Positions 9,558-24,308 are shown, counted from the stretch's first letter. The stretch: DNA of 44,323 bases from an uncultured Christensenella sp. (GCA_905203645.1 CAJKWP010000002.1:1-44323); one strand, 5' to 3'. Numbers and translations are program-made. The notes: generated by a model not told the origin, from the sequence alone.

Positions 9558-9654
9558 ACAAAACCTTTGGTTCCTTTTTGGTTTAACAAAAGAACAATAT
9601 CATTTTATATTTGCGCCCATAGCTCAACTGGATAGAGCGTTGGTCTACGGAACC
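9558..9654 (+). repeat. direct repeat copy 1 (upstream leader plus 5' 42 nt of tRNA-Arg)
   Basis: Aligns with 9758-9853 at a ~200-nt offset, with a few substitutions and one 1-nt indel. Identity stops after GGAACC in the 3' strand of the anticodon stem. Confidence 0.9.
9613..9654 (+). pseudogene. truncated tRNA-Arg(ACG), 5' half only
   Basis: GCGCCCATAGCTCAACTGGATAGAGCGTTGGTCTACGGAACC is identical to the first 42 nt of the intact gene. No T arm or 3' acceptor strand follows. Confidence 0.85.
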
Positions 9655-9757: not shown

Positions 9758-9853
9758 ACAAAACCTTTGGTTCCTTTTTGGTCTAATAAAAGAACGATAT
9801 CACATATATTTGCGCCCATAGCTCAACTGGATAGAGCGTTGGTCTACGGAACC
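9758..9853 (+). repeat. direct repeat copy 2 (leader plus 5' part of the intact tRNA-Arg)
   Basis: See copy 1. Confidence 0.9.
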
Positions 9854-9888
9854 AAAGGTTGGGAGTTCGAACCTCTTTGGGCGCACCA
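9812..9888 (+). tRNA. tRNA-Arg (anticodon ACG)
   Basis: Acceptor GCGCCCA/TGGGCGC, D arm GCTC/GAGC, anticodon stem TTGGT/ACCAA with loop CTACGGA (ACG at 9846-9848), T loop TTCGAAC, and an encoded CCA. Confidence 0.9.
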
Positions 9889-12244: not shown

Positions 12245-13609
12245 CTAGTTTGATGACATATAATATTGCATTTCAATAACAACTTTAAATCCATTATCCT
12301 TGGATATAATCAATTCTCCGCCAAGAGTTTCGGCATTTAATCGCATACCTTTTATTCCTGTGCCTTCGATTATTGATTTATTTGCAAATTTGCCGTTATC
12401 GTAAATTTCAATTTTGTTATCTGAAATATTTACGAACAGTTTTGTTGCGTTGGCATGACGAATCGCGTTTGTCGCACATTCTCTTATAATTTTAACAAGT
12501 GCTTTTGCTTTTGGTGTTTCTTTTGGTATTTCACCTGAAATTTCAATATTAAAGCCAATCATTTCAAAGGCTGTTACAATGGAATTTTTCAAATTTTGAG
12601 TTTCGGATATATCCTCATTATCAATTTCATCAAGCATTGTTTTAAGCAAACTTTTAACGCTGTTTAGGTCAAAATTCTTTTCATCAATCACATCTAAAAT
12701 GTGATGTAAAATAAACAACCTTTGACCGATTATGTCGTGCAATTTGCTTTTAAGTGTCAAAACTACTTTTTGTTTTTCAATTTCGTCAAGATTTTCAATC
12801 ATTTGCAAAATTTCTGTTTGTTTTGTTTTAAGTTCGTTTTGTTTGTTTTCAATCTCAATGGTTGTTGAATATTCTTTTGTTATATCAAACGCATAAATTT
12901 GAGTTTTTGATTGCTTAATTATTGAAAATGAATATACTTTTTTATCTGAAAACACCAAAATATTTTGCTCGTCTATAATTTTGGAATTTTCTCTTGACTT
13001 AAGACTTTGCCAAATTTCAAAAGAACTTTGATTTTGTTTAATTTTAAGTTTTTCAAGCAAGGTTTTCATTGCAAGGTTTTCATAAATCACATTAAACTCA
13101 CTTTCAAACATTACAGCCGTTTTAAGTCCGTCCAGTGCTTCTTTTAAAGAATAATAATTTATGTTGCTTTTTAGTTTAGTTAAAGAGTTTAATAAACTTG
13201 TCAGCAATTTTGCAAATAGATAAACGACACTTATAACGATAAACACAACCGAAAGTGTTTCATTTGCATATTTCCAAAAAGGCAAAAGCATAATTAAAAA
13301 TGAGAAATCTATTGCAAGTTTATAGTCTTTTTTTGCTAGCATTAGCGATAACTCGAACACCAAAATCAATGCACTATAATATGCTAAAATCTCGCAAATT
13401 GGCGTGTTTTTAAAGTTATAGAATATAAATGCCCAAATAACGCAAAGAGCAATATTTAAAACTCTGCAAACAACAAAAAGGTCAATTTTAAGTTTTCTAT
13501 TAGAAAACATTTCACAAAGTAATGTAATTGTTAAAAATATTGTGGAAGCAAATAGCAAAACAACCATAAGAGACTGCATTTCGTTGTTTAAAATGGATAA
13601 ATAACTCAT
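12245..13609 (-). CDS. sensor histidine kinase, HisKA_3 (NarL/LiaS-type) class, multi-pass membrane N-terminus
   Basis: H-box LHDIIGQRLFIL, N-box ECATNAIRHANA, G-boxes DNGKF...GTGIKGMRLNAETLGGEL, and about 5 N-terminal hydrophobic segments. I chose ATG 13609 because GGAGG lies 7 nt upstream and it forms an ATGA overlap with the upstream stop. The track ORF starts at 13615. Confidence 0.85.
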   Translation of the reverse strand: MSYLSILNNEMQSLMVVLLFASTIFLTITLLCEMFSNRKLKIDLFVVCRVLNIALCVIWAFIFYNFKNTPICEILAYYSALILVFELSLMLAKKDYKLAIDFSFLIMLLPFWKYANETLSVVFIVISVVYLFAKLLTSLLNSLTKLKSNINYYSLKEALDGLKTAVMFESEFNVIYENLAMKTLLEKLKIKQNQSSFEIWQSLKSRENSKIIDEQNILVFSDKKVYSFSIIKQSKTQIYAFDITKEYSTTIEIENKQNELKTKQTEILQMIENLDEIEKQKVVLTLKSKLHDIIGQRLFILHHILDVIDEKNFDLNSVKSLLKTMLDEIDNEDISETQNLKNSIVTAFEMIGFNIEISGEIPKETPKAKALVKIIRECATNAIRHANATKLFVNISDNKIEIYDNGKFANKSIIEGTGIKGMRLNAETLGGELIISKDNGFKVVIEMQYYMSSN

Positions 13610-15297
13610 AAGCATTCCTCCTTAAAACAAACGATTGTGCTATCTTCTTCCAAAGTGAAAATATATTCCATTTTATATTCATTAGGTAAATTTAGTTCTG
13701 GTTTTTCAAGCCTTATATCATCAAAAGTGATTTCAAACTCCCAAACATCTCTCTTTTTGATTGTTAGCCAAATATCTAGGTTCTCTTTTTTAATTTTTGT
13801 AAACAGTTCGTTGTATATATCATAAAATTTGTTGGCAATGCTAACTGGAATGGGTTTTTCATCAAGCCCAATACCAGCGTTTATATTAAGACATTTAATG
13901 TCATTAAAACTTTCATTGAACAAGAGTTTTAATTCATCTTTTGTGATTTCTTGCTTTTGTTCAGCAAGAAGAATAAGGCTTGTTTTTCGTTTTAAGTAGC
14001 CCACAATGATTTTTATTTCATTTAAAGTTTCTTTTGTCTGTTCTTTGTTTTCAGTGGTTATGGTTTCTGGCAAATTGTTTAACAATTTTTCAAGCACATT
14101 TTTCTTGTTTTTTATTTGTTTTTCCACTTTATCTAAAAGCAAAGCGTGTTGTTTAATTTGTTTTTCTTTTTGCAAAACTTCTTTTTTGTTTTCCAAAATT
14201 TTGTTTATATATTCAAGTTTTTCATTTTCGGTTTTAAGTTCTTTTTGCAAAGATTTAAGTTTTTCAACATCATCAAGCACCAAAAGTGTACCAGAATTTA
14301 ATTTTTGCTTTTGTAAAAGCATATTGCTATTTGTTTTTTGCTTGCGATATTGCGTGTTTTGATATTCAATATCTTGCATTTCATTCACTATTGCAAGTGG
14401 CACATTGCATGTTTCAAAAAATTCAAAATATGCTCCGCTGTTTTTAACAAGTCCACATTTTAGCGAAATATACACAAGCATTGTTCCTAAAATTGTATAA
14501 ACAAGCGTCATATCCGCAAGATATGGAACAGCAATATCTGTAACAACATACAAAATGCTATAAACTAAAACTAGCAAAATAACAACACTTGGCAAAATCT
14601 TTTGCTTTATGGTTGCTTTTTTGTTTGAAAAAGTATAAAACAATACAATTGTAGTTAAAATTTCAAGGAAAATAAAGGCGTAGATAATAAAATAGCCAAT
14701 ATTATATTCGTAGTTGCTTGAATGAGAACCAATTTCGCCATCAGGGAAAATAAAAACAAATTGATGAAAATCGTTTGTTAAAACAAGCAATAATAAAAGT
14801 AGGGATATGGCAAGCGAAATTATTGCAACAACCTTTTTATATGTTTTGTTTTTGATATAAATTTGATTGTTTGTTATAAACCACATACTAGGGATAAAAA
14901 GAAGTGGAATATATAAAAGATACCAAGTATAATCATTGTTATCATTAAAAGCCGACACTTTGTCAAAAATTTTAATACCCAGCCAAAAAGCAAACAAGCA
15001 AAACAAAATGATAAAATATATTTTTGTCTTTTTATCAATTGTTTTGATAATTGCACCAAACATTACAACAGATAAAACAACTGCCACCAAACAGTAAATA
15101 AAAACATTTGCTTTTTTATTGCTTTCAGTGGGGTCAGTTTTGCCAAAAACAAGTGCAAAAATTATGCAAAGCACAACACCCAGCACAACCCCACCAATAA
15201 TTAAGTTCCTTTTGCAAAATAGTTTATTCATAAGTTCATTATAGCATAAAATATCAGCTTTTCCATAAATAAATGCAAATAAAGTTGTAAACAACAC
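13606..15297 (-). CDS. multi-pass membrane protein with long coiled coil and no kinase motifs (sensor-like partner of the kinase)
   Basis: About 9-10 hydrophobic segments, then a Lys/Glu-rich coiled coil (LKSLQKELKTENEKLEYINKILENKKEVLQKEKQIKQ...) and a ~130-aa C-terminal domain. I could recognise no H/N/G boxes. Start ambiguous: GTG 15297 or ATG 15231. Confidence 0.65.
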   Translation of the reverse strand: MLFTTLFAFIYGKADILCYNELMNKLFCKRNLIIGGVVLGVVLCIIFALVFGKTDPTESNKKANVFIYCLVAVVLSVVMFGAIIKTIDKKTKIYFIILFCLFAFWLGIKIFDKVSAFNDNNDYTWYLLYIPLLFIPSMWFITNNQIYIKNKTYKKVVAIISLAISLLLLLLVLTNDFHQFVFIFPDGEIGSHSSNYEYNIGYFIIYAFIFLEILTTIVLFYTFSNKKATIKQKILPSVVILLVLVYSILYVVTDIAVPYLADMTLVYTILGTMLVYISLKCGLVKNSGAYFEFFETCNVPLAIVNEMQDIEYQNTQYRKQKTNSNMLLQKQKLNSGTLLVLDDVEKLKSLQKELKTENEKLEYINKILENKKEVLQKEKQIKQHALLLDKVEKQIKNKKNVLEKLLNNLPETITTENKEQTKETLNEIKIIVGYLKRKTSLILLAEQKQEITKDELKLLFNESFNDIKCLNINAGIGLDEKPIPVSIANKFYDIYNELFTKIKKENLDIWLTIKKRDVWEFEITFDDIRLEKPELNLPNEYKMEYIFTLEEDSTIVCFKEECL

Positions 15298-15316: not shown

Positions 15317-15348
15317 AAAAAAATCACACCGATTAAAGTGTGATTTTT
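15317..15348 (-). terminator. rho-independent terminator after the 647-aa lipoprotein gene
   Basis: AAAAAAATCACAC-loop-GTGTGATTTTT (symmetrical, T-run on the minus strand). Confidence 0.75.
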
Positions 15349-15361
15349 ATTATTTAGATTA

Positions 15362-17305
15362 TTACCAAGAAACATAGAAGCTTATAGGTTTTGAAGAAAC
15401 AGAAGCACTAGCTTCGGCTGTTTTTGTTAATTTGAGAACAAGTGTGTATGTTCCAGCTTCAGAAAGTGTGAATGTGTTAACACCGGCTGTTGCAATTGGT
15501 TTTCCGGTTGTCTTATCGAAAACCGCGTAAGCATTTTCTCCAGCATATCCACCAGCATAATCACTTGGGTAGATAGTGAATGTTGTTGATTGTATTATGG
15601 TTACAGTAAATTCAAGATATCTACATTCGCCAACATTCAATAATTTTTCTGAACTCTTGTTAGTATAATTTTTTCCACTTAGTGATGTTAACGCCTCAAG
15701 CTTTTCATAATCTACTTTTGTAAAGGTTTTGTTAAGAAGTTTTGTTTTTGCATCATTTTCTGTAAAACCTGGTGTTTCAAATGAAATGTCTACTGTTTCT
15801 CCTGCCAATGCAATATTTAAACAAGATGACGAAGAGCTGCCAGAAACACTACCCTTATTAAGTTTAATATCTTTAACTTTCAAAGGAATATTAACTCCTT
15901 CGCAAATCAAATAGTCACCAACTCGCAAGGTTCCAGTTGTAATTTGGTACATTGTGATAGTTGGATATGGAGGGGTTACATAACCTATCCAATTAACATT
16001 ACTCTCAGTTTGGTTGGTTCCAGTAACAACAGGTGCTTCATTGGTATAAACAACAATGCTTATGCTAAGGGTTGATTTATTTGGAATTGGTTTAAAGTTT
16101 TTGTTGTCAAATTCCAAACCTTCGAATTCGCCGTTTGTTTTTGCAATACTATATCTTCCTTGATTTTTGTATTGTTCGCCATATGCACGAAGAGTCAGCG
16201 TTACATTTGATGGAAGACTAGCGTCAGTAACTTCATATGTTTCCAAGGTTATATAATTGTTAGAAGTTGTTTGTTTTTCTTTTATGAACGAAATGCCAAC
16301 TCTAACTTCGATTTGCTTGATAACATAATCTGTTTTTGCAACTTCGCCTTTTAGGTAAGTAGCATTTCCTCTGCAGTAGATTCTTACTTCATAAGTTCCT
16401 GCATTTGTTGGTGCAGTTGTGGTATAGGTGCTATCGTTTGCGCCTTTCACTTTGTATTGAATTTCGCAAAGGTCTTTGATTGCTTCATCAACTGAGTATT
16501 TGGTTGAGGCAACACCTTGTGCTCCAGCATTGTATGTTTTTGCTGAAAGTGTGCCAAATGAACCTTTTCCAGTCAAACTTCTTACATAGCCACAATCGTT
16601 ACAATCAACGTCATTTTCGTCATCATATCTGTGCGAAAGTCCTGTTTCTGTTTTTTGTGTATGTTTTTCTGCGCCACAAATAGATTGGCGTCCGTGGGTG
16701 AATTCACCTTCTGATGTATATTCCCAAATGTGATTTTCTTCGTTTCTTGTCTTCGCTTCGTGTTGAGCGCAAGTTGTTTCTTCCCAGTGCTTTGTGTCAT
16801 CAGTTTTCCATGCCCAAGAATGATTTTCTTCGTTTCTTGTCATCACCTCGTGTTGAGCGCAGGTTGTTTGTTCCCAATGGTATACGTTATCACATTTCCA
16901 TTCCCAAGTATGGTTTTGCTCGTTTCTTGTTAATGGGGTTTCGTGTTCGCAAGTTGTTTGCTCCCAATGTTTTGTGTCATCACTTTTCCATTCCCAAGAA
17001 TGTTCGCCAGTGCCTTCAACTGTTCTGTCTTTTTGATATTGACAGGTTGAGCAAGTGCCTGTTTCCACTTTGTCAGTGTGGACACCAGCAGGGGTCTTTT
17101 CAACCCAAACAAAGTCATGATCCGCTAAGTCGCTTTTTTCTTCACAATTTTTGTCTGTGCAATCATGCCAATGTTGTGATTCTGTTTTTGTCCAATCACT
17201 ACTGAATGAATGTTCGTGTTTCCCGCAAGCCGAAAACAAAAACATTGCGGGCACAAATAACATAAATGCTAATACAAATGCCCAAATTGATTTTTTCTTT
17301 GTCAT
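15362..17305 (-). CDS. lipoprotein (647 aa) with His/Trp/Cys-rich tandem repeats and Ig/MBG-like C-terminal region
   Basis: AAGGAG RBS. Start trimmed to MTKKKSIWAFVLAFMLFVPAMFLFSAC (lipobox). Three 30-aa repeats H-x-W-x-W-K-x-D-x3-HWE-x-TTC-x-x-HE-x3-TRNE-x-N. Later AGTYEVRIY...YVIKQIEV (MBG-like). Confidence 0.8.
   Translation of the reverse strand: MTKKKSIWAFVLAFMLFVPAMFLFSACGKHEHSFSSDWTKTESQHWHDCTDKNCEEKSDLADHDFVWVEKTPAGVHTDKVETGTCSTCQYQKDRTVEGTGEHSWEWKSDDTKHWEQTTCEHETPLTRNEQNHTWEWKCDNVYHWEQTTCAQHEVMTRNEENHSWAWKTDDTKHWEETTCAQHEAKTRNEENHIWEYTSEGEFTHGRQSICGAEKHTQKTETGLSHRYDDENDVDCNDCGYVRSLTGKGSFGTLSAKTYNAGAQGVASTKYSVDEAIKDLCEIQYKVKGANDSTYTTTAPTNAGTYEVRIYCRGNATYLKGEVAKTDYVIKQIEVRVGISFIKEKQTTSNNYITLETYEVTDASLPSNVTLTLRAYGEQYKNQGRYSIAKTNGEFEGLEFDNKNFKPIPNKSTLSISIVVYTNEAPVVTGTNQTESNVNWIGYVTPPYPTITMYQITTGTLRVGDYLICEGVNIPLKVKDIKLNKGSVSGSSSSSCLNIALAGETVDISFETPGFTENDAKTKLLNKTFTKVDYEKLEALTSLSGKNYTNKSSEKLLNVGECRYLEFTVTIIQSTTFTIYPSDYAGGYAGENAYAVFDKTTGKPIATAGVNTFTLSEAGTYTLVLKLTKTAEASASVSSKPISFYVSW
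16733..17002 (-). repeat. three in-frame ~90-bp tandem coding repeats
   Basis: Encodes HSWEWKSDDTKHWEQTTCEHETPLTRNEQN / HTWEWKCDNVYHWEQTTCAQHEVMTRNEEN / HSWAWKTDDTKHWEETTCAQHEAKTRNEEN. Confidence 0.9.
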
Positions 17306-17377
17306 ATTTTTCTCCTTATATTTTAATTTTTGTGAAATACAAGAAGAAAATCTATCAATCTTCTTTTTCACATTTTC

Positions 17378-17386
17378 ATTATATCA
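17378..17386 (-). promoter_or_regulatory. extended -10 box (TGATATAAT) for the 647-aa lipoprotein gene
   Basis: Minus strand reads TGATATAAT. No -35 consensus. The 46-nt element ends 19 nt upstream. Confidence 0.55.
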
Positions 17387-17405
17387 TATAATCATCAAAA
17401 TTGTT

Positions 17406-17451
17406 TGGGACTTAAGTCTAAATTTTTGTTCAAAAAAAAGGACAAAAGTCC
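17406..17451 (-). promoter_or_regulatory. 46-nt conserved palindromic element, copy 1
   Basis: TGGGACTTAAGTCTAAATTTTTGTTCAAAAAAAAGGACAAAAGTCC is 45/46 identical to 19901-19946. It contains the GACTTAAGTC palindrome and GGAC/GTCC half sites. On the minus strand, GGGACTTTTGTCC plus T8 could also terminate the upstream 162-aa gene. Confidence 0.7.
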
Positions 17452-17494
17452 CTTTTTGTGTTTTTGTTTTATTCCATATCAAGTGTGGTATATT

Positions 17495-17983
17495 TTACAC
17501 ATTTGCAGATAGTTTTATAACAACACTGGTTTTAGCACTAACTTGTTGTTTTATGGTTATAACTCTTTTATCTGCACTAAATTTATACTCAGCGCCTAAG
17601 TAGTCATCAGTAACTCGATTAAGTTTGTTTTCAGCATCTTCTTTGGTATCGTAAAACTCTATACAGTTATATTCATTTATAATATAGAACCTTCCACTAT
17701 CGATTTCACCACCAATGGAAATATTAACGCCACCATTTTCATCAAAAGTAAGAATAAATGTAGAAGACATTGCTTTTGCATTTTCTTCACTTCCAATTTC
17801 TTCCATTAGGGCATCTTTATCATCACCCCAATTGATAGTTATATCGCTTTGTTTGTTTAAAACAGTGTAAGTTTTTCCTTTTTCGCTGATTGGTTTATTG
17901 CCACAAGCGGTCATCATAAACATTGCTGGAACAATTAAACAAATTGCTAAAATTAGTGATAAAATTGATTTTTTCTTTGTCAT
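17495..17983 (-). CDS. small lipoprotein (162 aa)
   Basis: AAGGAG RBS. MTKKKSILSLILAICLIVPAMFMMTAC lipobox. It shares a 32-nt identical stretch with the 604-aa gene's signal-peptide region. Confidence 0.75.
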   Translation of the reverse strand: MTKKKSILSLILAICLIVPAMFMMTACGNKPISEKGKTYTVLNKQSDITINWGDDKDALMEEIGSEENAKAMSSTFILTFDENGGVNISIGGEIDSGRFYIINEYNCIEFYDTKEDAENKLNRVTDDYLGAEYKFSADKRVITIKQQVSAKTSVVIKLSANV

Positions 17984-18029
17984 AACATTTCTCCTTTTTG
18001 TTTCATTTTATTTTATAAAATAGTTCAAA

Positions 18030-19844
18030 TTAACTCGCAGAATGGATTTCAAATTGGTTCAAAACCGCTTTGTCAACCCATTCATTGCCTTTTTCACCTT
18101 TTTCTAGGAACTGAATAACGAGTTTATATTGTCCCACTGCACTTGGTCCTGTAACTGTGCCATCTTCTTGATTAACACTGCCTGTCATAACAATATTGTC
18201 TTTTAGGTCTTTGAACACAAATCTTACAGTTTCCATTTTTAACATAGCACCAATATCTTCGCCAGATTCTGTTGTCATATTCAAATCTTTGTAACAATTA
18301 AATTGAACTGCATTGCCATCATACTCTTTGTCCAGTTTGTTGTAAAATTCAAATTTATCGGGTTGTTTGATATATTGTTTGTAAACATAAATAGGAAATG
18401 ACTCACGAGTGTCTGTGGTTTTGTCTACTCCAGTGAATGCAAACGAACCATCTGAGTTTTTAACTAAACGCAAAGCGTTATTTTCTGTTTCGCCTTTTCG
18501 TGGAGCATAAATTGTAACTGCACCGTCTTCAGCAAATTTGGCTAGGTTGCCATAAGTTGTGTCGGTGTTTCTGATTTCTTCTTTGTATCTTGCAATTATA
18601 TTTCCACTCAAACTGGTCCAACCAATTCTGTTTACAACTGGTGTTGCAAGGTTAATTATTGCTGTTCTTGCTCCATAGAAACCCGTGCAGAAATCTACAA
18701 GCAAATCTTCTCTTGATGTGCTTGTTTCTGGGTAATATCTCCATTCGCTTTCAAAATATCTCATTGGAGTGAACACAAAATCAAACTTTCCGCCCAATAC
18801 TAATGAACCATCTTCTTGCATTGCAACAAGTCTTGCACCTGCATCAACATTCAAATCAGTTGTGCTTGAACCATCTGCTGGCATTTGCATAACATACATT
18901 TGACCATTTGCATAGCCAACTATTGTATAGTAGCAAATTTCGCCAAAAATTGTTGGTGCTGTTGTTGCGTCAAAATCACTTACTTCTGTAATTTTTTTGA
19001 AACTGCTTTCTGTTATTGTTGCTTCAACAACCAATTTTTCAGCACCATTATAAGATAAAACAAATTCATATTCTCCAACAACGCAAGGACCAGCAATCTC
19101 ATGTCCAATGGTTATGTTTTTGTCAACGCCATATTGCGTGTTTATTTCGCCAGTAAGTGTGATATCCTTGTCTAAAGTAACTGCCATTTTTGTGTTTTTA
19201 TCTCTCCAAACATAAGATATTTTACTTAAAACATCTTCATCTGTGATTTCGCTCAATTTTGTGCCATCAACAGTGATGTCATCTTTGGAAACAAAAACTG
19301 CCGTTCCATTGTATGGGTGTTCTAATGAATCTGCATGAGTGTTTGTGAATGAAAAAGTTTGTTGATTTATTGGTGGAACTTTGCCAACGACAACAAAATA
19401 TGAAAAACTTTCTGTTTCAAAAACAATGTTTGTTCCGTTTAAGGTTGTTTCAAGTTCTTCAACAGTAGTTTCATTTTTAATGTGGAAAGTGGTGTATCCA
19501 TGTTCACTTTCAAAAGGTTTTGGCATTGTTATTTTTACTTTGCCATCTGGTTGTATTTTTGAACCCTTGCTGTTTGCAAGTGTTATATCAAAAACAGCAA
19601 CTTTTTCTTCGTCATATTCTTTATCAGATATCTTTGCCATAGTGGTTGAATACGAACTATCACTAGTTTCAATTTTATCCGAAGAAAGTGTTGAGCCTTT
19701 TTCAAATTTGCCTTCGGCAACTATGTTATTTGTTCCATTGATTTTTTCAATAGTGTTATTGCCACAAGCGGTCATCATAAACATTGCCGGAATGATTAGG
19801 CAAAGAGCTAAAACAAAAGCCCATATTGATTTTTTCTTTGTCAT
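18030..19844 (-). CDS. lipoprotein (604 aa) with MBG/Ig-like repeats
   Basis: MTKKKSIWAFVLALCLIIPAMFMMTAC lipobox. Motifs HPYNGTAVFV...VGEYEFVLSY and DKEYDGNAVQF...VGQYKLVIQF (MBG-like). Only 46 nt separate it from the 162-aa gene, so the two are probably co-transcribed. Confidence 0.8.
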   Translation of the reverse strand: MTKKKSIWAFVLALCLIIPAMFMMTACGNNTIEKINGTNNIVAEGKFEKGSTLSSDKIETSDSSYSTTMAKISDKEYDEEKVAVFDITLANSKGSKIQPDGKVKITMPKPFESEHGYTTFHIKNETTVEELETTLNGTNIVFETESFSYFVVVGKVPPINQQTFSFTNTHADSLEHPYNGTAVFVSKDDITVDGTKLSEITDEDVLSKISYVWRDKNTKMAVTLDKDITLTGEINTQYGVDKNITIGHEIAGPCVVGEYEFVLSYNGAEKLVVEATITESSFKKITEVSDFDATTAPTIFGEICYYTIVGYANGQMYVMQMPADGSSTTDLNVDAGARLVAMQEDGSLVLGGKFDFVFTPMRYFESEWRYYPETSTSREDLLVDFCTGFYGARTAIINLATPVVNRIGWTSLSGNIIARYKEEIRNTDTTYGNLAKFAEDGAVTIYAPRKGETENNALRLVKNSDGSFAFTGVDKTTDTRESFPIYVYKQYIKQPDKFEFYNKLDKEYDGNAVQFNCYKDLNMTTESGEDIGAMLKMETVRFVFKDLKDNIVMTGSVNQEDGTVTGPSAVGQYKLVIQFLEKGEKGNEWVDKAVLNQFEIHSAS

Positions 19845-19872
19845 TTTTTACCCCTTTATAAGTATATGTATT

Positions 19873-19881
19873 ATTATATCA
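19873..19881 (-). promoter_or_regulatory. extended -10 box (TGATATAAT) for the 604-aa lipoprotein operon
   Basis: Same 9-mer as at 17378-17386, with the same 19-nt distance from the 46-nt element. Confidence 0.55.
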
Positions 19882-19900
19882 CGTAGGTATTAAAATACCT

Positions 19901-19946
19901 TGGGACTTAAGTCTAAATTTTTGTCCAAAAAAAAGGACAAAAGTCC
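19901..19946. promoter_or_regulatory. 46-nt conserved palindromic element, copy 2 (between divergent promoters)
   Basis: TGGGACTTAAGTCTAAATTTTTGTCCAAAAAAAAGGACAAAAGTCC. It is flanked by the minus-strand TGATATAAT (19 nt away) and the plus-strand TGGTATAAT (21 nt away). Confidence 0.7.
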
Positions 19947-19967
19947 TATTATCTTGTGGGGCTTTTA

Positions 19968-19976
19968 TGGTATAAT
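19968..19976 (+). promoter_or_regulatory. extended -10 box (TGGTATAAT) for the response-regulator gene
   Basis: TGGTATAAT lies 30 nt before the ATG at 20006. GGGAG RBS. Confidence 0.5.
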
Positions 19977-20005
19977 ATGAAAAATAAATACTTTTGGGAG
20001 CGAAA

Positions 20006-20617
20006 ATGGATAAAATAAAAGTATTGCTTGTTGAAGACCAAGATTTGCTACTAGACGGAATGTCTTTGTCGCTTGAAGCAAGTGGCGAAATTGAAATTAT
20101 TGGAAAATTTAAGGATATTGCAAATTATTTTACTTTTGAAGATAAAAATATAGTGGATGTAATTTTAACCGATGTTTGCTGTGCGAATAATCACAATAGC
20201 ATTGATTTTATAAAAGAAATTAAGCAAGATAATCCGAACATTAAGATTATTCTAATGACATCTGTTATGGAAATAAGTTTTATTGATAGAGCCAAACAAG
20301 CTGGTGCAGACAGTTTTGTGTATAAGACAATCCCAACAAAAGAACTAATAACAATTATACGGAATGTTATGAATGGATATGGCACTTTTCCAATAAGCAA
20401 AAAAGAAGAAATTTCTTTTTTGAAAAATTTAACTGACAACGAACTCAATATTGTAAGACTATATTGTCAAGGCAACAATCGAAAAGAGATTGCACAAAAA
20501 ATGTCCTTTTCTGAGTCCACAATCAAAAACACAATAACACTAATTTTAGAAAAAACCGGTTTTCCCTCAATGTCAAAGTTTGCAATTTGGCTAATGCAAA
20601 ATGGATATATAGTATAA
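20006..20617 (+). CDS. response regulator, LuxR/NarL (GerE-type HTH) family
   Basis: Receiver domain: KVLLVEDQ, DVILTDV (phospho-acceptor Asp), ILMTS, and the YK lysine. Output domain: LTDNELNIVRLYCQGNNRKEIAQKMSFSESTIKNTITLILEKTG. Start trimmed to MDKIKV. Confidence 0.85.
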   Translation: MDKIKVLLVEDQDLLLDGMSLSLEASGEIEIIGKFKDIANYFTFEDKNIVDVILTDVCCANNHNSIDFIKEIKQDNPNIKIILMTSVMEISFIDRAKQAGADSFVYKTIPTKELITIIRNVMNGYGTFPISKKEEISFLKNLTDNELNIVRLYCQGNNRKEIAQKMSFSESTIKNTITLILEKTGFPSMSKFAIWLMQNGYIV

Positions 20618-20846: not shown

Positions 20847-22766
20847 ATGAAAATTAACTGCAAAACAAAAGTTTCAATGTTTGTCATGTTGTGCATAATA
20901 TCCTTTATTTTGCCATGCTTTGCAATGTTTCACAAGCAAGATATTGTTTTTGCCGACGAAAATACAATCGCAAATACATTGGATTCAAATATTGAACAAA
21001 CAGTTACAAAAAAGCGTTACAACAGTTGTGATTATGGTATTGTTACTCCAAATCTTGACCAAGGAACAACAAATATTTGTTGGGCTTATGCAACCGCAAG
21101 TGCATCCGAAATATCAATACTGAAAGATCGATTGGACACCAACACAAAAGATACTTTACGTCTTTCACCAACACAAATTGCATACCGCACTTACAACAGG
21201 GACAGCGATCCCCTTGGCAATACCGTTGGAATTTATGCCAATGACAAATGGAATGTGACAGGAAATCCATACAACACTTTTTTGCCACTGTCACAATGGT
21301 GCGCACCAGTTGCTGGCAACGTACCAGCCAAAGCTGATGCTTTTGAAAACAACCTTTACAGATTGTTAGATGCCGAAAAAATTGATTCGAACTCCACAGG
21401 CACATACAAAATCAACCAAATAAAACAAGCTATTGCAAAATATGGCGCTGTAACAGCTTCTTATTACAATGCACGTGAAGTTGAATATTACAACACAAAA
21501 GGCGAAACCCGTGACGGGATTTCGCACGCAATAACCTTAATCGGTTGGGACGACACAATTCCTGCAAACAAATTTCAACCAAAAAACGCAAGCGTAGATG
21601 GGGGTTGGATTGTAAAAAACAGTTACGACAGTTGCCCTTATTTTTATCTTTCTTACGACAGCTCGATTGGCAATGTTTGTGGATTCAAGTATGCAAATAA
21701 ATCTGAATTTGATTACAATTATTTTTTTGATAACGTTGTAGATGAACCAATACGAAGTGAGAATAATTCAAAGTGCGTCTCAAATATTTTTATGGCAAAA
21801 AACGGCAATGACAACCACACTGAGTACGTCAAAGCAATAAATGTTGCAACTTTCGGCGACAATCTGTCTTGCAGTGTCAAAGTATTCACCAATCTAACCG
21901 ACCAAAACAATCCCGAAAGCGGAACCTTGTCCGCCAGTGGCAAAAGAATTTTGGACTACGGAGGTTATCACACCATTGTACTTGATAACTTGGCAAAAAT
22001 CGACAAAAACTCGTATTATTCAGTTGTAGTCGAAGTAAGCAGCACAATCGGTGGCAGTGCATACATTTTGTACTCACTCAATTCCAGTCCAAACACTCAA
22101 TTCAAATCGGCAAGTGGTTGGAACAAATCAAACTTTGCTGGCAGAATAAAGGCTTACACCGTTTTGCAAAATGTACAGACAAAAACAGATATATCCTCTG
22201 TTTTGTTTGACCCCATATCTCCACAGTTGTATACTGGACAATCTGTTTGTCCACAAGTAAAATTGACAAAAAATTTTCAAACACTTGTTCAAAACGTTGA
22301 TTTTATTCTTTCATACAAAGATAACTTGAACGTTGGAATTGCAACAATTTGTGTAACTGGTATCGAAAAATACACTGGCATTTTGACCGTCCAGTTTGAA
22401 ATACTTCCGATTGATGTTCCCACAAAACCTTATGACAAAATTCAATTTTCAAATAATGCAATAATTTTAAAGGATATTGATTTGCCTGCAGGCTGGCAAT
22501 GGCTTTATCCAGACCTGCCAATTGATGGCTTGTCAAGTGCAACAGCGATATATGTTGGAGCAAACAAACAAAATTACAAAAACACAACAATATCAATCAC
22601 TTTGCAAAAAAAAGAATCAGAAAATGAATTGCCTTCCGCAGAAACAAAGAAGGATAAAAAAGGACTCTCTGACATCGAAATTTTTGTTGTAACTATCGGT
22701 AGTATTGCAGTTTTTTCGATATTTTTGTTTGCGATTAAGAAAAAATTATTTTTCAAAAAGAAATGA
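20847..22766 (+). CDS. secreted papain-like (C1 family) cysteine peptidase with C-terminal Ig-like domain and membrane anchor
   Basis: Signal peptide. Catalytic motifs QGTTNICWAY (Gln/Cys), SHAITLIGWDD (His) and GWIVKNSY (Asn). Later YTGQSVCPQVKL...NVGIATICVTGIEKYTGILTVQFEILP. C-terminal hydrophobic helix plus KKKLFFKKK. No clear RBS at 20847. Confidence 0.8.
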   Translation: MKINCKTKVSMFVMLCIISFILPCFAMFHKQDIVFADENTIANTLDSNIEQTVTKKRYNSCDYGIVTPNLDQGTTNICWAYATASASEISILKDRLDTNTKDTLRLSPTQIAYRTYNRDSDPLGNTVGIYANDKWNVTGNPYNTFLPLSQWCAPVAGNVPAKADAFENNLYRLLDAEKIDSNSTGTYKINQIKQAIAKYGAVTASYYNAREVEYYNTKGETRDGISHAITLIGWDDTIPANKFQPKNASVDGGWIVKNSYDSCPYFYLSYDSSIGNVCGFKYANKSEFDYNYFFDNVVDEPIRSENNSKCVSNIFMAKNGNDNHTEYVKAINVATFGDNLSCSVKVFTNLTDQNNPESGTLSASGKRILDYGGYHTIVLDNLAKIDKNSYYSVVVEVSSTIGGSAYILYSLNSSPNTQFKSASGWNKSNFAGRIKAYTVLQNVQTKTDISSVLFDPISPQLYTGQSVCPQVKLTKNFQTLVQNVDFILSYKDNLNVGIATICVTGIEKYTGILTVQFEILPIDVPTKPYDKIQFSNNAIILKDIDLPAGWQWLYPDLPIDGLSSATAIYVGANKQNYKNTTISITLQKKESENELPSAETKKDKKGLSDIEIFVVTIGSIAVFSIFLFAIKKKLFFKKK

Positions 22767-22850: not shown

Positions 22851-24308
22851 TTATGCTATTTGAACAACAGTAAGCATTGCACTTGGGGCACCTGAATTTG
22901 TGATTGTTCTTCCCTGTGTAAGAATTGGAACAAGCGTGATTATATCGTTTCGAGCAAGTTCAATCACAATTGTACAACTTACATTTGTACTTGAAGTCAA
23001 TGGTCGAGTCGAACCTTCAACCAAGACGTTGTTTTTGAAAATTCCAATTCGGTCGCCAGCGGTTGCAGATGAACCATTATTGATTGAAAAACTAACAAGG
23101 TATGTCCCTGGTGTAGTTATGGTTATTGATGTGGTGTTTATTATCAACTGATTTGCGGTTAGCGAACTTCCAAATGAGATCGGTTTGGACGACGCAATTG
23201 ATTGGGATTCTGGATTGAAAATTGTTGCGTTTATATTGCTGGTTAACCCAGTTGGACCAGTTGGTCCCTGTATGCCTTGTGGACCCGCAGGTCCACGATC
23301 GCCAGTTGCACCTTTTTCTCCTTGGACACCTCTGTCACCATTATCGCCCTTGTCGCCCTTGGGACCCTGTTGACCTTGGGGAATATAAAATTTCAGATAA
23401 TGTATGTTGTTTTCAAACGTATCTTCAACACGTGCCTCTTCCCCTGGATTTGTGGTTTCAGTGGTATCAATTGAAATATGTTCGCTTCTGCCTATTTCTC
23501 CTGGAAATCCCCTTGGTCCTGTTTCGCCTTGTGGGCCTGTGGGACCAACATCCCCTTGGGGTCCTGTTTCGCCCCTTTCACCCCGTTGACCTGTTTCGCC
23601 TTGTGGTCCTGCGGGGCCAACATCACCTTTGGGTCCAGGTTCGCCCCTTTCACCCCGTTGACCCGTTTCGCCTTTTGCTCCTTGCGGTCCTTGTATTCCT
23701 TGCGGGCCTGTACTACCTTTGGGACCAATTTCGCCTCTTTCACCCTGTAAACCTCTCTCGCCAGTTGCCCCCTTTTCACCCTGAGGTCCTGTCGCGCCAA
23801 TATCACCTTTTTCACCCCTTAAACCTTGCACCCCTTGTGAACCTTGGTCACCTTTTTGACCTTTTGGAATAAAAAAATCAAAATAATGTACACCTTTTTC
23901 GTATCTGTCGACAACTTTGGCGTGTTCGGTAGGTTCAAGTTGAGTTGTATTCCCTGCAAAGACCACCTCAGTTTTTCCATCGCACCCACGTGGAATTTCA
24001 AATTCCAAATACGTGGTATTTCCATCATGAGTTGCAGTTACGCAAGCCTGCTGATCCCAATCAACAGTTTTTGTTGACTTTACTTCCAAATTTTCACCAC
24101 TTGGGCCGGTTGCACCTTTGTCGCCTTTTTCGCCTTGTAATCCACGCAATCCTTGTGGTCCAGTTGGACCAGTTTCGCCCTTTTCACCTTGTGGACCTTG
24201 AGGTCCCATAGGTCCGTAAAAAATCTGAGTTGAATTTCCAAAAATGCTTGTTGGATACAAATTTTTTTTGTCACAGTATGTGCGTTTGTTATGGCAAATG
24301 TCTTTCAT
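22851..24308 (-). CDS. collagen-like triple-helix repeat protein with BclA/C1q-like C-terminal domain
   Basis: Several Gly-X-Y runs (GPMGPQGPQGEKGETGPTGPQGLRGLQGEKGDKGATGPSG...) are interrupted by beta-rich modules ending in Y-x-x-F-x-IP-x-G. The ~130-aa C-terminal non-collagen domain (...TPGTYLVSFSINNGSS...TVVQIA) resembles BclA. GGAG RBS. Confidence 0.85.
   Translation of the reverse strand: MKDICHNKRTYCDKKNLYPTSIFGNSTQIFYGPMGPQGPQGEKGETGPTGPQGLRGLQGEKGDKGATGPSGENLEVKSTKTVDWDQQACVTATHDGNTTYLEFEIPRGCDGKTEVVFAGNTTQLEPTEHAKVVDRYEKGVHYFDFFIPKGQKGDQGSQGVQGLRGEKGDIGATGPQGEKGATGERGLQGERGEIGPKGSTGPQGIQGPQGAKGETGQRGERGEPGPKGDVGPAGPQGETGQRGERGETGPQGDVGPTGPQGETGPRGFPGEIGRSEHISIDTTETTNPGEEARVEDTFENNIHYLKFYIPQGQQGPKGDKGDNGDRGVQGEKGATGDRGPAGPQGIQGPTGPTGLTSNINATIFNPESQSIASSKPISFGSSLTANQLIINTTSITITTPGTYLVSFSINNGSSATAGDRIGIFKNNVLVEGSTRPLTSSTNVSCTIVIELARNDIITLVPILTQGRTITNSGAPSAMLTVVQIA

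Follow-up and report, generated by a model that had tools for sequence, protein, structure and literature searches.

Paired GGAC-N4-GTCY dyads as candidate operators linking a LuxR-type response regulator to lipoprotein genes in an uncultured Christensenella sp.

Two copies of a repeated element lie upstream of lipoprotein genes, and one of them also upstream of the gene for a LuxR-type response regulator, in a 44,323-nucleotide (nt) stretch of DNA from an uncultured Christensenella sp. (GCA_905203645.1, CAJKWP010000002.1:1-44323), the whole of which is called the window here. Each copy holds two 12-bp dyads of the form GGAC-N4-GTCY, set at fixed distances from extended -10 promoters. We propose that these dyads are probably operators of the adjacent NarL/LuxR-type regulator, which in its phosphorylated form would bind them as dimers and activate the adjacent extended -10 promoters. 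An operator linking the regulator to the lipoprotein genes had been suggested by an earlier reading of the window (the original prediction), and the link is supported by the conservation of the dyads, their fixed spacing, their co-occurrence with one gene module and their absence from a paralogous locus. From the sequences compared we infer the pairing of this protein with the dyads, the positions of the transcription starts, and activation rather than repression.

Conserved dyads at fixed distances from extended -10 boxes

The repeated element is a 46-mer, TGGGACTTAAGTCTAAATTTTTGT(T/C)CAAAAAAAAGGACAAAAGTCC, present on the plus strand at 17406-17451 (copy 1) and 19901-19946 (copy 2) and identical in 45 of its 46 positions, with the T/C as the sole difference. 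The repeat is non-random: 100 dinucleotide-preserving shuffles gave no match even with three mismatches tolerated. On the minus strand a gap of 19 nt separates each copy from the same box, TGATATAAT (17378-17386 and 19873-19881), and on the plus strand TGGTATAAT stands 21 nt past copy 2 (19968-19976). None of the three dyad-associated promoters passed a two-hexamer sigma-70 scan, and they thus have no recognisable -35. The two copies, the gaps of 19 and 21 nt and the missing -35 are all as originally predicted. The flanking DNA had been described as unrelated, which is not wholly the case. The repeat extends over 74 nt at 86% identity (17378-17451 against 19873-19946; repeat family D8), taking in the -10 box and a half-similar 19-nt spacer, and repetition is also seen in the stretches that encode the signal peptides of the three lipoproteins (repeat family D4). 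Across the whole 44-kb window, TGNTATAAT was observed six times against 1.8 expected.

In each copy we distinguish site A, on the side of the lipoprotein promoter, from site B. Site A, GGACTTAAGTCT, lies at 17408-17419 in copy 1 and at 19903-19914 in the regulator-proximal copy 2; site B lies at 17440-17451 in copy 1 and, as GGACAAAAGTCC, at 19935-19946 in copy 2. The symmetry of these sites, GGAC-N4-GTCC, or GTCT in site A, suits a dimer and is found at the four places in the window and in all orthologues. The original prediction took the unit to be the palindrome GACTTAAGTC plus half sites within one 46-nt palindromic element. The relevant unit is instead two 12-bp dyads; the dyads of the proposed element are indeed conserved, but they are two separate sites, each with its own promoter, and in lineage L010 they are found apart. 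A single 46-nt palindrome or hairpin is rejected: the inner stem TTTTGTCC/GGACAAAA is present in the window lineage only and is not a conserved feature, because the 20 nt between the dyads vary between lineages.

The conserved parts were defined by orthologous loci whose regulators are 94% down to 67% identical to that of the window, from at least 10 Christensenellales/Caccovivens-like gut lineages, together with the locus of a 55% identical paralogue. In a gapless alignment of 12 regulator-proximal intergenic regions from at least 10 lineages, site A carries 1.66 bits per column, site B 1.91, the lipoprotein -10 box 1.91 and the regulator -10 box 1.46, against 0.9-1.2 in the three spacers. 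The outcome is what an operator predicts, in that the dyads and the -10 boxes are conserved islands with a fixed spacing. Both sites are 12 bp long; the consensus of site A is GGACTT[ATG][AG]GTC[CT] (GGACTTnnGTCY), and that of site B is GGACWAAAGTCC or GGAC[AT]AAAGTCC. The regulator-proximal site B (19935..19946) is the most conserved intergenic block. The orthologues read TG[AT]TATAAT at the lipoprotein box and keep TGnTATAAT at the regulator box.

Apart from a terminal run of A, the 20 nt between the dyads are free to differ among lineages. The run is present in all lineages, as A7-A9 among copies with a window-type spacer and in shorter or interrupted form in L006 and L220. In the window it is an A8 run directly upstream of site B (19927..19934, plus strand), where an UP-element of the regulator promoter would lie (-49 to -56), and it would act as one. 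Most loci have A8, whereas L134 has A7 and L221 has A9, which brings the dyad spacing to 31 or 33 bp in these two; these differences could be real slippage or a homopolymer assembly error.

The distance from dyad to promoter is nearly constant. In all 20 of the distinct promoters examined, internal copies among them, 21 nt separate site A from the lipoprotein TGnTATAAT. The same distance holds between site B and the regulator TGnTATAAT in 13 distinct lineages; L218 has 20 nt here and L010 has 42 nt. On the assumption, made throughout, that transcription starts 7 nt past the -10 hexamer, each dyad spans -37 to -48 of its own promoter, with its centre at about -42.5 there and at about -74.5 from the opposite promoter, and the two dyad centres are 32 bp apart, or about three helical turns. 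The lux box of LuxR is likewise an inverted repeat with its centre at -42.5 (PMC3376562). In L010 the dyads are 124 nt apart, which indicates that they are separable and that each is tied to its own promoter. Site A of L010 is still 21 nt from the lipoprotein -10, and site B is at about -63.5 from the regulator promoter, 21 nt farther from the regulator -10 than usual. This shift amounts to exactly two helical turns and keeps the helical phase, as would be expected for an activator that contacts RNA polymerase.

Within the loci compared, the dyads are also largely specific to the module. Non-redundant module loci totalling 206 kb (33% G+C) contain perfect GGACN4GTCC 22 times, and 21 of these 22 sites are in module promoters; near unrelated response regulators, one was found in 406 kb. 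At the locus of the 55% paralogue (L214) the dyads are absent, there is no A/T-centred dyad at the promoter and there are no lipoprotein genes. This paralogue adjoins a hybrid kinase, and its recognition helix reads SKKTIRN, whereas all orthologues have SES/HTIKN. The gene order of the module, with the regulator divergent from the lipoprotein genes, the 7TM protein and the kinase, recurs among different flanking genes (by lineage, enolase/WYL; gyrA/SSB and phage genes; a type I restriction system; metK), and the number of lipoprotein genes per module ranges from one to at least five.

Activation, repression or another DNA-binding protein

We hypothesize that the kinase encoded downstream of the lipoprotein genes phosphorylates the regulator, dimers of which would then bind the 12-bp GGAC-N4-GTCY dyads. 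Site A would drive the lipoprotein operon and site B the regulator's own gene. Class-II-type activation with positive autoregulation would be the likeliest mode, and the lipoprotein operons would be induced.

Several points weigh against this hypothesis. The original prediction held that the promoters are activator-dependent for want of a -35. The absence of the -35 stands, but the inference drawn from it loses force, since promoters with a perfect TGnTATAAT can be active with no -35; a dyad at -37 to -48 might just as well bind a repressor. The helical-phase argument comes from one lineage, L010, with L011 and L144 being further copies of that region. The lineages in the footprint are related, and its rows are therefore not independent samples. 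The dyad counts cover the loci that were fetched, and further copies or regulon members are possible elsewhere in the genome. Finally, in the site B of internal promoter copies in L010 and L216, GGAC/GTCC is changed to AGAC/GTCT in a paired manner that keeps a stem, and such pairs would be explained by a hairpin no less well than by a protein site.

The strongest competitor keeps the same protein and the same sites but reverses the sign of control, and we consider it unlikely. The extended -10 promoters would be constitutive, and a dimer at -37 to -48 would block RNA polymerase until a signal is received. This agrees with the perfect TGnTATAAT boxes, as such promoters need no -35, with the overlap between the dyad and the -35 region, and with the fact that the sensor genes have a promoter of their own, so that the system need not bootstrap. 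However, site B of L010, at about -63.5, would not block polymerase, yet its helical phase is kept. Conservation of the A-run at the UP-element position also speaks for activation, and dyads at -42.5 in promoters that lack a -35 are the usual activator layout, of which the lux box is an example.

It is a good deal less probable that the dyads serve another DNA-binding protein, for example a global regulator or one of LexA type with a GAAC-N4-GTTC-type box, and that the adjacency of the regulator is coincidental. The 4-4-4 layout does resemble the Gram-positive SOS box in form. However, GGAC/GTCC is invariant and is never GAAC/GTTC in the aligned orthologues. The sites stay with the regulator module across genomic contexts, do not occur in 200 kb of flanking genes or at the paralogue locus, and include one that lies precisely in the regulator's own promoter.

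Internal copies, terminators and lipoprotein cassettes

Promoter copies also occur between lipoprotein genes, as copy 1 in the window and in L006, L010, L057, L135, L137 and L216, and in all of them site A is still 21 nt from the -10. The internal site B is located just 3' of the stop codon of the preceding gene, and the TATTAT flank seen in the regulator-proximal copies gives way to a T-rich flank complementary to the A-run. In copy 1 the result is an intrinsic terminator of the operon of the 604- and 162-amino-acid (aa) lipoproteins (17432..17457, minus strand; AAAAAGGGAC-UUUU-GUCCUUUUUUUU), with site B of copy 1 as its core. It starts 38 nt past the 162-aa stop codon, and the 41-nt segment folds with -12.0 kcal/mol (z -2.8) and a GC core of 4-5 bp. 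The corresponding minus-strand hairpins of A-tract, stem and U-tract have energies of -20.4 kcal/mol in L006, -17.6 in L216 and -16.1 in L010, with stems of 8-12 bp plus a U-run across these three loci and of 8-9 bp in L010 and L216. The original caveat that copy 1 may double as the terminator of the 162-aa gene is thus borne out by folding, for copy 1 only; the regulator-proximal site B has a stem of 4-5 bp and no minus-strand gene upstream to terminate. Either the site B dyad of copy 1 serves twice or it has been taken over.

The same data bear on the possibility that the element is mainly structural, as a terminator or RNA hairpin, or a by-product of duplication of a lipoprotein cassette, with no operator role at all. 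We give this little credence. In its favour are the folding of the internal site B as a terminator with paired changes, the variable gene content at this slot among strains, and the spacer between the dyads, which varies between lineages and is nonetheless identical in 19 of 20 positions between the window copies and fully identical between the two copies in both L057 and L137. Because a lineage-variable spacer is near-identical between copies in one locus, the 45/46 identity points to recent duplication or gene conversion and probably not to selection on all 46 bases. However, duplication cannot account for conservation between lineages whose spacers have diverged. Site A has a stem of 4 bp and no U-run, and the regulator-proximal site B has nothing to terminate and a short stem, yet is the most conserved block of all. 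The 46-nt-wide hairpin is not conserved, and Rfam gave no match at gathering score in the window and none at E<=1 in 17250-20050, so that a known structured RNA family is rejected.

Least credible of all is a generic dispersed or mobile palindromic repeat, similar to repetitive extragenic palindromic (REP) sequences or miniature inverted-repeat transposable elements: a search of a genome collection with the dual-dyad pattern did match at least 120 loci of several phyla, but nearly all are one unrelated repeat with GGACTTTAGTCC...GGACTAAAGTCC cores in long GTAG...CTAC hairpins (among the matches listed, L057 and L109 are relevant), its 7-nt complementary flanks and palindromic loop are both lacking in the window element, and the Christensenellales dyads in the loci compared occur only at module promoters at a fixed distance to the -10. 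The original prediction would have fallen with a dispersed repeat of many copies unrelated to promoters, which was not seen in the 206 kb of module loci. Neither terminal inverted repeats nor a long hairpin spanning the element was found, as the flanks are non-complementary and the TTTTGTCC/GGACAAAA stem is lineage-specific. A mobile-element origin is rejected, since phage and plasmid collections held nothing similar to the element.

The cross-phylum repeat (L014-L133 except L057 and L109) has the form gtagNNN-GGACTTTAGTCC-(palindromic loop)-GGACTAAAGTCC-NNNctac, with a 12-bp core that is identical across phyla. Examples are L023:5153-5279, L077:2809-3000 and L121:7654-7960, and some copies are in tandem with a period of 75-132 nt. 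Among the matches listed it is found in Cyanobacteria, Verrucomicrobia, Chloroflexi, Bacteroidota, Ignavibacteria, Planctomycetes, Acidobacteria and Gammaproteobacteria. Its 5' GTAG and hairpin look REP-like, and six sample loci had no Rfam match.

Comparison of strains reveals how variable the lipoprotein genes are. L002 encodes an identical regulator protein and is without the 604-aa gene; its 162-aa gene is joined to the regulator-proximal promoter (window 17627-19844 against L002:1-520), with the crossover at the start codon or in the signal peptide. Still other arrangements are present in L136, L135 and L057, and many metagenome contigs end 100-290 nt upstream of the regulator gene. These strain differences and contig breaks support the view that the locus is recombining actively. 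We propose that promoter, operator, signal peptide and 5' end would have been copied ahead of further lipoprotein genes, copy 1 of the window being one such case. In copy 1, site A would still act from -42.5, and site B, at -74.5, would have gained complementary flanks and so double as the intrinsic terminator of the preceding operon.

Many of the lipoprotein genes have a 5' untranslated region (UTR) of 64-83 nt that opens with an invariant UGUGAA...UUCACA stem. Such a region is present in the window (17306-17373, minus strand) and in L006, L008, L010, L012, L057, L135, L136, L141 and L216. In the 647-aa lipoprotein gene of the window the hairpin (17330..17373, minus strand; UGUGAA...AAGAAG/CUUCUU...UUCACA) starts about 5 nt past the -10. 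The inner purine/pyrimidine stem covaries by lineage (AAGAAG/CUUCUU, AAUAAGGA/UCCUUAUU or GGAAA/UUUCC), and its pyrimidine strand could instead pair with the ribosome-binding site, to which it is complementary as well. The hairpin may stabilise the mRNA or switch translation; a short UTR, such as that of the 604-aa gene, is without it.

A broader and more tentative hypothesis, which we hold to be possible rather than probable, joins these parts. Operator, promoter, 5' end and signal peptide may form a portable cassette, and recombination between its copies may add, remove or exchange unrelated surface-lipoprotein genes under one two-component switch; the dyad would be both operator and the terminator insulating each cassette, and a covarying 5'-UTR hairpin able to mask the ribosome-binding site would add a second layer of control.

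Gene neighbourhood, known systems and significance

On the minus strand the order is the copy 2 promoter, the 604-aa and 162-aa genes, the copy 1 promoter, the 647-aa gene, a terminator, the HisKA_7TM gene and the kinase gene, with the regulator gene divergent from copy 2. Proteins of the locus come from human-gut metagenomes under the labels Christensenellales or Candidatus Caccovivens. The regulator is LuxR-type, as first proposed: the open reading frame at 20006..20617 (plus strand) encodes 203 aa with a receiver (REC) domain and a LuxR/GerE helix-turn-helix (HTH) of the NarL/FixJ family (Pfam Response_reg 3.5e-15, GerE 9.2e-8). The protein has the acceptor Asp56, and its recognition helix is kept among the orthologues. 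Its closest solved structures are DesR (1.3e-22), VraR (2.4e-18) and LiaR (2.3e-14); against NCBIfam it reached no equivalog cut-off, and it belongs to no named system.

The 647-aa and 604-aa genes had rightly been called lipoprotein genes, and lipoprotein-type signal peptides are found in their products and in that of the 162-aa open reading frame. The three proteins are alike in residues 1-33 only, and none matched a Pfam or NCBIfam family, lenient thresholds included. The 604-aa lipoprotein (18030..19844, minus strand) is encoded by the first gene of the regulator-proximal promoter, whose -10 box (19873..19881, minus strand) is 28 nt ahead of its ATG, with AAGGGG as the ribosome-binding site. 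Its signal peptide ends in an ...MMTAC lipobox, and its AlphaFold model (pLDDT 85.5) is an all-beta, multi-domain string. Foldseek gave weak matches of low TM-score to S-layer proteins and Ig-domain arrays, that is, to generic beta-sandwich arrays, and sequence relatives of the protein bear Flg_new, Big and DUF6273 domains. The 162-aa lipoprotein gene (17495..17983, minus strand) is co-transcribed with it across a 46-nt gap that holds no dyad. The 647-aa lipoprotein gene (15362..17305, minus strand), identified by its signal peptide and by repeat analysis, contains 90-nt tandem repeats (family D5). The window gene has three of them (16720-16989); that of L001 encodes 677 aa and is longer by 90 nt, a difference in length consistent with a single additional repeat.

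A strong terminator follows the 647-aa gene (15319..15348, minus strand; AAAAUCACAC...GUGUGAUUUUUUU). Next comes a promoter found by promoter scan, TGGAAA-16-TGCTATAAT (15238-15265, minus strand), which ends 6 nt ahead of the ATG of a 541-aa HisKA_7TM membrane sensor (13606..15231, minus strand; Pfam HisKA_7TM 1.7e-13; start set by the L001 gene call). Because this promoter lies after a strong terminator and ends so close to the ATG, it suggests that the 7TM sensor and kinase genes have a separate promoter and a leaderless mRNA. The 456-aa membrane histidine kinase (12245..13615, minus strand), presumably the partner of the regulator, has an HDxxGQxL H-box and HATPase_c, with weak NarX/NarQ/UhpB-type matches.

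Other features of the window lie farther off. Beside the regulator are two surface or secreted proteins, a 639-aa papain-family peptidase with a lectin-like domain (20847-22766) and a collagen-like Gly-X-Y protein with a BclA_C domain of exosporium type (22851-24308, minus strand). Comparison of 9558-9654 with 9758-9888 shows the 5' half of tRNA-Arg(ACG) duplicated as a perfect 49-nt copy, together with 45 nt of upstream sequence. Only the second of the two is called a tRNA by ARAGORN and Rfam, which makes the first a truncated tRNA duplicate. Near the start of the window, GGACAATGGTCT at 175-186 is close to a TGATATAAT at 201-209, and this near-site was rejected and treated as chance, as it lies downstream of the -10 in the wrong geometry. 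An imperfect inverted repeat at 195-260, CAGTTGTCGGCAAATGTCAC...TGCCGATAAC, stands beside a TGATATAAT. It resembles an insertion of about 150 nt that separates the -10 of the regulator gene from its ribosome-binding site in L140 (90-230), and could be a small element, either mobile or structured.

By analogy, the system would work like a LuxR/NarL-family operator at a class-II position, with lux box/LuxR, ComA box/ComA, DesR, VraR and LiaR as its nearest analogues. In the lux system of Vibrio fischeri the promoter is without a usable -35, and regulator and target genes are divergent, as here. The two systems also share a LuxR-type HTH and an inverted repeat centred at -42.5. However, the lux box is 20 bp long as opposed to 12 bp, its sequence is unrelated to that of the dyads, and its host is Gram-negative. 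LuxR itself has an N-terminal ligand domain for acyl-homoserine lactone, whereas the regulator described here has a phospho-receiver domain.

The ComA box of Bacillus subtilis is TTGCGG-N4-CCGCAA. ComP-ComA thus shares a palindrome with a 4-bp centre upstream of the core promoter, as well as a NarL-family regulator and a many-span membrane kinase. It differs in half-site sequence and in that ComA boxes have a third half-site, membership having been checked by Pfam and NCBIfam only; unlike in ComP-ComA, no peptide-pheromone genes were seen at the window locus. DesK-DesR, VraSR and LiaFSR are autoregulated, envelope-related operons in Firmicutes. Their regulators are of the same family and their kinases have an HisKA_3-type H-box, but identity is low, and the present module has a separate HisKA_7TM protein in addition to the kinase, lipoprotein targets and another operator sequence.

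The Mycoplasma vsp/vlp genes are variable lipoprotein families with a shared promoter and signal-peptide cassette. They resemble the locus in their conserved promoter, 5' end and signal peptide, their unrelated mature parts and a gene number and identity that vary among close strains. Unlike in vsp/vlp, no invertase, inverted repeats or long homopolymer switch was found at the lipoprotein locus of the window, where control is apparently by a two-component regulator and not by stochastic phase variation. Bidirectional intrinsic terminators are similar to the internal site B and its flanks, which form an A-tract, stem and U-tract just past a stop codon. However, the stem core here is a conserved dyad that is a predicted operator elsewhere, and the GC core in the window is 4-5 bp.

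A literature search found no report of a GGAC-N4-GTCC operator, and nothing relevant on HisKA_7TM systems in Firmicutes or on lipoprotein regulation in Christensenellales. The architecture is textbook, set in a new organism, and the value lies in annotation and not in principle. GGAC-N4-GTCC, 21 nt upstream of TGnTATAAT, would be a cis-regulatory code for uncultured and poorly understood human-gut Firmicutes (Christensenellales / Candidatus Caccovivens-like), usable for regulon searches in metagenome-assembled genomes and for reading metatranscriptomes. It would tie an orphan-looking two-component system to strain-variable, multi-domain surface lipoproteins with a possible role in interactions with the host or with phages. 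If the portable-cassette hypothesis is true, it would give uncultured gut Christensenellales strain-variable surface repertoires.

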